Of a stretch of DNA of 64,000 bases, positions 61,301 through 64,000 are shown one piece after another; the first letter of the stretch is position 1, and each line of letters begins with the position of its first letter. The stretch lies in the NCBI RefSeq assembly GCF_057098645.1, contig NZ_CM169472.1; one strand, 5' to 3'. A program made the position numbers.

Positions 61301-64000
61301 GGTAAATCATGACAAATCCTTTATCAATGACTCTTTGCAGACCTTTCCAGGATTAATTCTTTTTTTCTTGCCCTGGATTCGTCTGCCATTTCCTGATTTT
61401 TATATTTATATACTCTAAATAATTCGAGTTGCAGGAAGGCGACAAGCGAGTGAATCGCCAGGAGCTTACATAAGTAAGTGACTGGGGTGAACGAACGCAG
61501 TCGCAGTTCATGCAACTTGAAGTATGACGAGTATAAATGGAATGGTACATGGGCAAATATATTCGTCCCTTATCCGATGCGGTATTTACCATCGCATCTG
61601 ATGACCTGTGGATCGAGAGTTTAGCGATCCAACAATTACACACCACGGCAAATTTACCCAACATGCAGCGCGTAGTGGGGATGCCAGATTTACACCCCGG
61701 ACGCGGCTACCCGATTGGCGCAGCGTTCTTCTCCGCAGGCCGTTTTTACCCAGCACTGGTCGGCAATGATATCGGCTGTGGCATGGCGCTATGGCAAACA
61801 GATATTCTCGCTCGCAAATACAACGCCGATAAGTTTGAAAAGCGATTATCAGCTTTGGATGACGTTGCTGAAGAAAGCTGGCTGGAGGAAAACCTGCCGT
61901 CAGCATTTGCACAGCATCCGTGGCGCAGCTCGCTTGGCTCTATCGGTGGCGGCAATCATTTCGCTGAACTGCAACAAGTTGATCAAATCATCAACGCTGA
62001 ACTGTTTGCACTGGCAGGTCTGGATGCGCAGCATCTGCAACTGCTGGTTCATAGCGGCTCGAGGGGGGGTGCCCCTATTAAGTTGTCAAGCATGTTATGA
62101 CGCCTGCGGGGTATAAAAAGTCCCGTCGCGCATCATGGCGAACAGAACGTCGCAGCGTCGTCTCGCCAGGGCGATAAGCGCCTGATTGTGTCGTTTTCCC
62201 TGACTCATTTTGCGGGTGTAGTAAGCCCTGGAGAGCGGATCCCTGAGCGCGGCGAAGGCCGACAGGAACAACGCCCGTTTGAGAGCTTTATTACCCCGTC
62301 GCGAGGGATGCTCACCGCGTATTGACGAGCCGGATCGCCGAGTTACCGGCGCAAGGCCAGCATAAGCAGCGAGATGTGCGGCAGAGGCGAAGGCGCGGCA
62401 GGCGACCTCGGTGAGGAGTCTGGCTGCGGTCCTGACACCGACTCCGGGCATACTGGTCAGGACCGGGTAAAGAGGGTGAGCAAGAACTCGCTGTTCTACC
62501 TCAAGCACCACCTCGTCTCTTTGCTTACGCAGCGTGATGAGCTGGAGTGCCAGACGTGGCAGTACTACGGCAGCGGCATTCGTGCCGGGAACGACGACGG
62601 TTTGTTCGGCCAGTGCCTGAGCTATGTCTGCTGCAAGGCGTTTACCCAGACGAGGCGCAAGTTTGCAGAGCTGGGCTGCCAGCTTCTTCTCACCCAGCGA
62701 AGCGAGTTTTTCTGGTGAGGGATATCGCTGGAGAAGATCGAGTACCGCCGGGTGATCAAGTCTCGGACCGAGAACGCGCTCCAGTGCCGGATGTATCTGG
62801 GTCAGAAGGCCGCGGATACGGTTGCTGGCCTGCGTTGTCTGTGCGGCAAGATCATCATCGAAGCCGCAGAGCATGGAGAGTTCGGCGATTTGCTCGTCAG
62901 CCAGTTTCAGCGTGCGTAGCGCGTGAGGCAGGGTACGGGCAGCTTCGGCAATGATGGCAGCGTCACGAGCATCAGTTTTAGCTTCACCGGCGTGTAAGTC
63001 GGCTATGCGGCGCATGGCCAGTCCAGGGAGGTATCCGACAAGGACTCCTTCTGAGCGGGCAACGGCGACAGGTAACGCACCGATGGTAGCTGGCTGATCA
63101 ACAACCAGCAGTATCTGACCATGTTGTTTCAGGTCAGATATTAGCGACCTGAGTTTGTTTTCGTCGTTGGGTAATGCTTTATCGAACAGGCGTTTACCTG
63201 AACGATTAATGGCTACAGCGTGATGCGTATCTTTACCGACATCAACGCCGATAAAGACCTGGACGGATTCGTAATCGCTGGATTCGGTCATTCTGTCTCC
63301 CTTGTATATGGGTTAACCAGATAACCACGGGGAGCAGGTACCGGCATCCACGTTACAGACGGTCCCGGCAAAAGTGCCTGACCTGACCCCTATTAGCGGT
63401 TACCAGCGCCCCACCAGACCCGGTGACATCACCCCCCGGATCATGGACGACTGGGGGCAGTAATCATGCCGGGTCTGGCTGGCTAACACCCCATTATAAG
63501 GGGTACGAATAAAGTAACGGGGCAGTCTATTTTACAGCGGCATATTGCCTCGTTTTCGCATCATGGTTTGCCTGAAGGCAGTGACGATGCGCTACGGTAC
63601 ATTGCGGAACATGACGATGCGCTGGCATTTGCGCGTATTAATAGCCAGATGATCGCTTTGCGCATAATGCAACAGGTTAAGGCCACGGGAAGTCCGGTTC
63701 TGGATGTGGCGCATAACTTTGTTAGCGCGTGTCAAATCGGCGATCAACAGGGCTGGTTGCATCGTAAAGGTGCCACGCCGGATGACAACGGTCTGGTGAT
63801 TATTCCCGGTTCACGCGGTGATTACTCCTGGCTTGTACAGCCTGTTGCGAACGAAAAAACGCTCCACTCGCTGGCGCATGGGGCAGGGCGTAAATGGGGG
63901 CGCACCGAGTGTAAAGGGCGTCTGGCAGCGAAATACACGGCGACGCAACTCTCGCGTACTGAACTTGGCAGTCGGGTAATTTGTCGCGATAAACAACTCA

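Follow-up and report, generated by a model that had tools for sequence, protein, structure and literature searches.

The 64,000-nucleotide (nt) stretch analysed here (contig NZ_CM169472.1 of NCBI RefSeq assembly GCF_057098645.1; the window) carries an upstream open reading frame (uORF) of 15 codons between yafP and the RtcB-family gene rtcB2. It probably serves the rtcB2-prfH operon as a translated leader ORF, an enterobacterial orthologue of PA5471.1 of Pseudomonas aeruginosa set in a structured leader that would respond to ribosome stalling. In the literature the RtcB/PrfH pair of this locus goes by the name RtcB2-PrfH. After colicin E3 has cleaved the 16S rRNA, the pair releases the ribosomes and reseals them, and no other system is known that rescues and reseals ribosomes whose decoding centre has been cut by toxins of the colicin E3 type. 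No description of how it is switched on was found in the papers located on the system (Morita 2006 and 2009 lay outside this set). The leader joins two literatures that do not cite each other on this point, namely antibiotic induction of MexXY/ArmZ in Pseudomonas and ribosome repair in Escherichia coli. The link yields a testable model, in which the operon would be induced by ribosomes stalling on the 15-codon leader, and the E. coli genome gains a conserved small ORF that looks translated. The elements of the ORF are as follows.

61296..61303, + strand: Shine-Dalgarno (SD) sequence of the leader ORF, AAGGAGGT (read directly)
61309..61356, + strand: leader ORF (uORF), 15 codons and TAA, MTNPLSMTLCRPFQD (homologue of P. 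aeruginosa PA5471.1)
61360..61366, + strand: T7 run just past the uORF stop, in the loop of hairpin P1 (length polymorphic, 6-9 T)

Reading and translating the sequence confirmed two statements of the original prediction, an SD 5 nt 5' of the ATG (spacer AAATC, 61304-61308) and a 15-codon frame ending in TAA. The codons are ATG ACA AAT CCT TTA TCA ATG ACT CTT TGC AGA CCT TTC CAG GAT TAA, and the frame cannot be longer because an in-frame TAA lies two codons upstream. The location was also borne out, with yafP ending at 61231 and rtcB2 starting at 61549. The prediction had left the choice between a leader peptide and a small protein; the first is retained, and a free-standing small protein is not, the amino acids being free to vary. 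The T-rich tract noted behind the ORF is present, but it forms a hairpin loop and is no terminator tail.

Loci with rtcB2-prfH were drawn from species-representative genomes, from contigs with RtcB2 homologues 60-81% identical and from a metagenome pattern scan. The scan gave 51 stretches, about 22 of them true rtcB2 loci, and the remaining chance matches were discarded. Individual loci are cited by number (L079 and so on) where needed. An SD-preceded ORF of 13-18 codons (mostly 15) was found 5' of rtcB2-prfH in all 28 distinct leaders, which span Enterobacteriaceae, Budviciaceae, Morganellaceae and Pseudomonas (at least four families). The sequence (A)AAGG(A/G)G(G/A) stands 6-8 nt before the ATG in 28/28. 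Loss of the reading frame in relatives had been named beforehand, together with a lack of ribosome occupancy, as what would refute the prediction; the frame is without a stop in 28 of 28 leaders, and the +1 and +2 frames are stopped in 25/28 and 12/28, respectively. The uORF stop falls 9-12 nt past a conserved GCAGRC in each of the 28, even with an altered frame over the conserved motif.

The peptides behave differently. Residues 2-8 vary freely, no third-codon-position bias is seen, and most peptides share an (L/I/F)-C-(R/G) motif, Leu-Cys-Arg being the commonest form. Two lineages (L027 and the L034 type) read the conserved RNA motif CTTTGCAG in another frame, giving ...NRFAGIFWG and ...PFAGPTS. 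Where conservation of the peptide across enterobacterial prfH loci had been proposed as a check, the SD, the ATG and the open frame proved to be kept and residues 2-8 to vary. As judged by the alignment, the conserved thing is an ORF running from a strong SD to a fixed end and not a peptide sequence. Representative leader peptides are listed below.

K. oxytoca: MNTDFQNALCRPSQE
Salmonella: MTLYSLNALCRHFQH
Citrobacter: MMTNSKNSICRHSQE
Kosakonia: MTQHALISLCRPFQD
Cronobacter: MTYTTLITLCRLTQE
Limnobaculum: MQQIQLNILCRRIQD
Proteus: MTTINMNTLCGQSQK
Providencia: MSKINQTLCGHCQK
Pseudomonas sp. YH-1: MQALITLCRSRLA
Unidentified taxon, with CTTTGCAG in a different frame: MQHVTLQSTNRFAGIFWG
Metagenomic group, with CTTTGCAG in a different frame: MINNLTPFAGPTS

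In P. aeruginosa, ArmZ (PA5471) is RtcB-like and PA5470 is prfH (review of MexXY regulation). PA5471.1 is a leader peptide that couples ribosome stalling to armZ/PA5470 expression (Morita et al., 2009, as summarised in PMC12057347, PMC13041342 and PMC3516279). Its published features are a length of 13 amino acids, Q3 encoded by CAG (C at position 7), F4 (C at position 12) and a position about 250 bp upstream. It is transcribed from a constitutive promoter, and its complete translation keeps armZ off; leader deletion, a stop at codon 3, ribosome-targeting antibiotics and ribosome-slowing mutations switch armZ on. The mutations Q3Am, Q3K and F4L have effects, and the literature treats the ORF as translated. 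The mechanism is described as 'proposed' transcription attenuation (review).

The P. aeruginosa locus (L079) carries MIQFSTLCRLRLA 254 nt 5' of the rtcB-like gene that precedes prfH. This ORF was identified as PA5471.1 because the Q3 codon CAG, the F4 codon TTC and the distance agree with the published facts. Alignment of the E. coli and P. aeruginosa leaders revealed a shared -35, -10, GCAAAGGAGG, ATG, CTT-TGC-AGG in the same frame and stop codon. A covariance model trained without Pseudomonas found a sole match in the P. aeruginosa locus (L079:2227-2288, 35.2 bits, E 5.9e-7) and scored L023 at 38.7 bits; in the window it matched 61292-61356 and nothing else (E 2.7e-16). On this sequence evidence the window ORF is the enterobacterial orthologue of PA5471.1.

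RNA structure was analysed on a MAFFT alignment of 25 leaders, with 500 shuffles for covariation. The strands concerned are the following.

61337..61342, + strand: P1 outer 5' strand GCAGAC, uORF codons 10-12 (covariation, RNAalifold)
61347..61351, + strand: P1 inner 5' strand CCAGG, uORF codons 13-15 (covariation)
61372..61376, + strand: P1 inner 3' strand CCTGG (covariation)
61381..61386, + strand: P1 outer 3' strand GTCTGC (covariation, RNAalifold)
61386..61393, + strand: anti-SD strand CCATTTCC, running on directly from the P1 3' strand (pairs with 61539-61545)
61539..61545, + strand: SD2, the rtcB2 ribosome-binding region GGAATGG, 3 nt before the start codon (complementarity)
61292..61301, + strand: P0 5' strand CTGCAAGGAG, overlapping the SD (complementary to 61331-61340)
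61331..61340, + strand: P0 3' strand CTCTTTGCAG, uORF codons 8-11, its last four bases common to P1 (minimum-energy folds)

The outer stem of P1 is 98% paired, with compensatory changes in three of its six pairs and a score matched by 0/500 shuffles. Column pairs are AU 12, GC 10 and GU 2 at one position and CG 19 and UA 4 at another; compensated forms include GCAGGC:GCCTGC, GCGGGC:GCCCGC and GCAGGTC:GACCTGC, and the general form is GCAGRC/GYCTGC. Unguided RNAalifold returned the same six outer pairs as its sole helix. The inner stem is 82% paired, with double changes in 3/5 pairs. The uORF stop codon and the T-run sit in the P1 loop. This loop takes large inserts with both P1 strands kept: 165 nt in Intestinirhabdus (L018 1770-1940) and about 200 nt in P. 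aeruginosa (L079 2290-2455).

The strand next to P1 pairs with the ribosome-binding site (RBS) of rtcB2. Anti-SD:SD2 pairing is present in 24/25 leaders (columns 131-143/180-189, 82-92% paired). Native duplexes average -7.3 kcal/mol, against -4.9 kcal/mol with the different SD2 type and -4.0 kcal/mol after shuffling. GGATTGG is a natural covariant of GGAATGG; leaders of the GGATTGG type carry CCAATTC or CCA(C)ATCC as anti-SD. An in-frame ATG four codons before the annotated rtcB2 start (MEWYMGK..., 61537-61551) is seen in E. coli, Klebsiella and Salmonella and is replaced by CAG in Citrobacter FP75 and Intestinirhabdus. Because this ATG is not kept, GGAWTGG is better explained as an RBS and pairing sequence than as coding sequence.

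A third helix, P0, is unproven. It appears in minimum-energy folds, with 96.9% of cells paired in the 25 leaders. The GCAG of the ORF is common to both helices, so that P0 and P1 would be mutually exclusive.

The leader has a predicted promoter of its own.

61239..61244, + strand: -35 hexamer TTGCAA of this promoter, 8 nt past the yafP stop (read directly)
61262..61267, + strand: -10 hexamer TAATAT (TAGTAT in most E. coli)
61268..61275, + strand: GC-rich discriminator GTGCGCGT (5-8 of 8 positions G/C in nearly all leaders)

TTGCnn, a spacer of exactly 17 nt and TAnnAT were found in 32 of 35 leaders, with the position conserved in at least 29/35; two of the 32 promoter picks (L035 and L046) were spurious and were corrected by eye to TTGCAA-N17-TAGTAT. 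The promoter lies 27-42 nt 5' of the SD in nearly all leaders. It matches the consensus at 8/12 positions, which is below the threshold of a generic promoter scan, and was therefore missed by that scan. From the promoter geometry, transcription is predicted to start at about 61274. Among eight strains compared, the -10 is TGGTAT in K-12, O157:H7 and HH194M, in which rtcB2-prfH has decayed by deletion; the critical A at hexamer position 2 is changed (L001 2676-2681). The GC-rich discriminator (also in L013-L027 and L079) resembles those of ppGpp/DksA-repressed promoters of the translation apparatus.

Published ribosome-profiling data for this region are listed under another ORF.

61266-61418, + strand: 50-codon ORF in another frame, the 'Entero67K' microprotein, given there as under purifying selection (Fesenko et al., Table S4; NC_000913.3 253195-253345; dN/dS 0.47)

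A re-analysis of MG1655 ribosome profiling gave 293 footprint reads covering 51% of this 150-nt ORF (253195-253345, +), with no start-site reads. The roughly 76 covered nt fit the 48-nt uORF plus footprint margins, which is indirect evidence for the inferred translation of the uORF in E. coli. The 50-codon ORF was rejected as a candidate: its ATG lies inside the -10/discriminator, and outside Escherichia it has no start codon. Its C-terminal half shifts with T-run length, giving versions of 43, 48, 50, 56, 58 and 78 amino acids. The published 50-residue microprotein call is probably an artefact of uORF footprints and RNA-level conservation.

These elements suggest a four-part unit: a sigma-70-type promoter after yafP, a strong SD with AUG, a short ORF with its 3' third in P1, and the anti-SD. 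The GCAG of the ORF could pair upstream (P0) or downstream (P1), and because it has these alternative partners the position of the ribosome on the leader would decide the fold. If PA5471.1 is a guide, the operon would stay low while the leader is translated smoothly and would be turned on by stalled ribosomes, the stalling being caused by translation inhibitors or by decoding-centre damage of the colicin E3 type. Ribosomes damaged by colicin E3 are reported to halt at start codons, and in constrained folding (below) only a ribosome on the leader start codon makes the rtcB2 RBS more accessible. In enterobacteria the outcome would most likely be that the rtcB2 RBS is exposed, with Rho acting on message left untranslated; an intrinsic terminator is less likely. 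Initiation of rtcB2 translation is favoured as the controlled step, perhaps reinforced by Rho, because an RBS-occluding helix was found and no terminator-like hairpin. The K-12 remnant of rtcB2 in E. coli, ykfJ, is reported to be inducible by the translation perturbant 4-azaleucine (PMC3516279).

Several observations limit or weigh against the case for a translated, stalling-responsive leader. Firstly, AAGGAGG-N4-9-ATG occurs once in the window (both strands), dinucleotide shuffles hold a mean of 0.56 such sites and 46/100 shuffles have at least one; the single occurrence is therefore not beyond chance, and significance comes from the cross-genome comparison. Secondly, no direct evidence for translation of the uORF in E. 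coli was found: it is missing from the retapamulin/Onc112 start-site lists searched (the Stringer 2021 supplement and, by peptide or coordinates, the Fesenko tables) and from RefSeq annotation. Thirdly, no compensatory (double-sided) change in P0 was found in the 25 leaders, the helix being invariant. A further pairing, P2b (TTGCCC 61368-61373 with GGGCAA 61551-61556 at the rtcB2 start), is weak, being 76% paired with one compensatory column and missing in the L034 type. In constrained folding of the 25 leaders, a ribosome on the leader start codon (AUG1) raised the mean unpaired probability of the rtcB2 RBS from 0.27 to 0.36; placed at codon 9 or on the stop codon it gave no rise. The predicted AUG1 effect is weak, small and purely thermodynamic. 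A scan of the + strand from 60700 to 61700 detected no intrinsic terminator. The same scan of the P. aeruginosa leader detected none either, and 8-10 bases other than U separate P1 from the T-rich stretch that follows. Since neither leader has a detectable intrinsic terminator, the published term 'transcription attenuation' does not carry over as it stands. A stop at codon 8 of PA5471.1 is reportedly constitutive-ON in P. aeruginosa; such a stop would weaken P1 and does not fit a simple 'P1 = ON' model.

Two further points concern the strains. In favour of a part for Rho, a bicyclomycin data set lists a Rho-dependent termination region between the uORF and ykfJ, at K-12 NC_000913.3 253424 (+), which corresponds to a window position of about 61494 (Rho score 2.45, p 9.7e-5). 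But the data set uses 800-nt windows, the K-12 entry is borderline and the downstream genes in K-12 are pseudogenes, and the signal may be the end of a dinB-yafP transcript running into them. In the window's strain the leader regulates nothing useful, the operon being broken by an insertion sequence; strains with an undamaged operon include ATCC 25922, CFT073, NU14 and 55989.

A more specific proposal, which we regard as doubtful, is that the leader is a dedicated sensor of ribosomes damaged in the decoding centre and closes an autoregulatory loop. Ribosomes cleaved by toxins of the colicin E3 or CdiA type would bind the SD and stall on the leader start codon, which would keep the SD flank from P0; GCAGAC would then enter P1, and the strand that helps to occlude the rtcB2 RBS would be withdrawn. 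Healthy ribosomes would then make RtcB2 and PrfH. PrfH would free the damaged ribosome from the leader, RtcB2 would reseal its 16S rRNA and the switch would reset. If this were true, the antibiotic inducibility of armZ in Pseudomonas would be a by-product of an ancestral ribosome-damage sensor. Two related ideas were set aside. Codons for the target tRNAs of colicin E5 and colicin D (Asn, Asp, His, Tyr and Arg) are present in every leader peptide, not obviously above expectation in an informal comparison; the idea was dropped because of this and because the published action of RtcB2 is on 16S rRNA. There is no evidence for binding of the leader SD in trans by the 49-nt 3' 16S rRNA fragment released by colicin E3, which carries the anti-SD, an idea that was not followed up.

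Of the alternatives to a translated leader ORF, the one that survives best, although it is unlikely, is a structured untranslated RNA (riboswitch-like or protein-binding) in which the SD and AUG are structural or incidental and no peptide is made. GCAAAGGAGG, CTTTGCAG and GCAGRC/GYCTGC are indeed conserved as RNA and not as codons, the SD flank can pair in P0, and the searchable E. coli data sets hold no start-site signal. An untranslated RNA does not account for the ATG 6-8 nt past the SD, for the frame open in 28/28 leaders while the others are closed in 25 and 12, or for the constant spacing between the stop and P1. In the literature the Pseudomonas homologue counts as a translated leader peptide with codons that matter (Q3Am, Q3K and F4L). 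K-12, the source of the start-site data, has an A-to-G change in the -10 and a dead operon.

That the E. coli ORF is a functionless relic or arose by chance, and is kept because the intergenic region is young and near-identical within the species, is very improbable. The segment from promoter to hairpin (61236-61400) occurs once per genome in 5,391 of 5,426 complete E. coli genomes at an identity of at least 95%. The uORF and SD are invariant in eight diverse E. coli strains, but most adjoining bases are equally so, and within-species conservation therefore cannot separate coding from non-coding sequence; the T-run (6-9 T), the first -10 bases and the ERIC repeat described below are variable among the eight. 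A relic would also agree with the single, chance-compatible occurrence in the window and with the loss of the operon in many E. coli lineages, the window strain included. It is contradicted by retention of the element in genera that share only 60-80% identity in their rtcB2 proteins, by covariation in P1 and the anti-SD, and by a covariance model that both scores the window site at E 2.7e-16 and finds distant members. Neither MG1655 nor RM9872 has an annotated feature for the uORF, the match overlaps none in 12 other sampled E. coli genomes, and in an Rfam search no family spans the leader. A minus-strand match to STnc350 (21.6 bits, E 0.39) was rejected as chance, with no recurrence in the Salmonella locus.

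Slightly less probable again is a free-standing small protein acting in trans. The strong SD, the own promoter, the (L/I/F)-C-(R/G) motif common to most members and retention in E. coli strains with decayed rtcB2-prfH would suit such a protein. Residues 2-8 that are free to change with no third-position bias would not, nor would the unrelated peptides of the L027 and L034-type lineages; Leu-Cys-Arg coincides exactly with the P0/P1 strands, and the ORF is always physically linked to rtcB2-prfH. Least credible of all is that the overlapping 50-codon ORF at 61266-61418 is the real gene: its listing by Fesenko et al. with 293 footprint reads and a dN/dS of 0.47 is outweighed by an ATG in the conserved promoter -10/discriminator, a T-run-dependent C-terminal half, the missing start codon outside Escherichia and footprints over 51% of its length only, without start-site reads.

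Over the leader region the window does not differ from E. coli O145 strain RM9872. Its genes run in the order lafU, dinB (59727-60782), yafP (60779-61231), a 317-nt intergenic region and the RtcB-family gene.

61549..62070, + strand: rtcB2 5' fragment, start ATG at 61549, cut by ISEc20 (RefSeq annotation of the identical strain)

ISEc20 (IS110 family; 62071-63515, transposase ORF 62095-63291 on the minus strand) splits rtcB2 into two pseudogene fragments. Downstream of the insertion lie the remainder of rtcB2, prfH and pepD (RefSeq annotation of RM9872), and the prfH 3' of ISEc20 is intact in this identical reference strain. The RM9872 locus tags skip from I3Y_RS01190 (yafP) to I3Y_RS01200 (rtcB fragment) over L002 6033-6349; a feature was apparently once called in this intergenic region and withdrawn from the annotation. 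In the window strain dinB directly overlaps yafP (60779-60782). The yafN-yafO toxin-antitoxin pair lies between dinB and yafP in K-12, O157:H7 and NU14 and is absent in the window strain, HH194M and A1.

The loop that separates the anti-SD from the rtcB2 RBS carries an inserted repeat.

61408..61531, + strand: ERIC repeat, inserted in this loop (Rfam V_AS5, full length, 48.5 bits, E 3.8e-9)
61438-61442 and 61455-61459, + strand: stem GGCGA/TCGCC (inside the ERIC repeat)

The V_AS5 match, at 48.5 bits, is below the family gathering score of 96. ERIC repeats are imperfect palindromes of about 127 bp with a conserved core found in many copies per genome, and the core of this one matches the ERIC1R and ERIC2 primer sequences. 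A 361-nt query including the repeat gave a median of six matches per E. coli genome, and the 165-nt leader query without it gave one. The repeat is full in the window strain, K-12 and O157, about 55 nt long in 55989 and absent in B2 strains; it is outside the conserved regulator. The small GGCGA...TCGCC stem of the original prediction is thus real but belongs to the repeat and not to the regulator. In K. spallanzanii the same spot holds an ERIC-like insert; in Salmonella an ERIC copy lies 5' of the leader promoter instead. Positions noted for the repeat outside the window are L015 about 2940-2990 and L017 1680-1803.

The leader was compared with known systems, some of them from general knowledge. 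It resembles the erm/cat leaders (ermCL-ermC and catA86L; general knowledge) in its SD-preceded short ORF and RBS in a helix and, as proposed, in pairing that depends on ribosome position and a response to impaired translation. Sequestration of the RBS by an upstream strand was found (CCATTTCC with GGAATGG). P1 may link the leader ORF to the RBS helix: it covaries and brings codons 10-15 together with the strand that runs on into the anti-SD. A direct exchange of partners with that helix would be hypothetical, and the predicted accessibility change is small. A conserved arrest peptide, as in the erm/cat type, was not found: the 28 peptides differ widely, two lineages are frame-shifted and nothing points to arrest by a particular drug. 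P1 and the anti-SD helix lie side by side and do not form a 1:2/3:4 exchange, and the rtcB2-prfH genes repair ribosomes whereas erm-type genes modify them. The toiL-topAI leader of E. coli (general knowledge) combines a uORF that senses many translation inhibitors, an occluded RBS and Rho acting on untranslated message. A similar set is proposed for the rtcB2 leader, for Rho on the strength of the one borderline K-12 entry, but the two leaders have no sequence relationship. The rtcBA operon of E. coli shares regulation of an RtcB RNA ligase upon damage to the translation apparatus; it differs in its RtcR activator and sigma-54 promoter, lacks a leader ORF and encodes a different paralogue. Amino-acid attenuators (trpL, hisL and thrL) are not matched, as the 28 peptides show no repeated codon class and there is no terminator.

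The closest system is PA5471.1 itself. Both leaders stand 5' of an rtcB-family gene followed by prfH and have a promoter, predicted in E. coli, with a 17-nt spacer, the GCAAAGGAGG SD block, ...T-L-C-R... codons, a GCAGGC...GTCTGC complement and, in P. aeruginosa, GGATTGG just before the start codon. The ORF has 13 codons in P. aeruginosa and 15 in E. coli, and the distance from its stop to the gene is about 210 nt in the former and about 190 nt (about 60 nt without ERIC) in the latter. The extra 200 nt or so of P. aeruginosa lie inside the P1 loop, a segment missing in enterobacteria, and in the enterobacterial leader the RBS has its pairing partner in the strand beside P1. The downstream protein is a ribosome-repair ligase in the E. 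coli work and a MexZ anti-repressor in P. aeruginosa. The enterobacterial leader is known here from its sequence, by which it is an unannotated, compact form of the PA5471.1-type ribosome-stalling leader.

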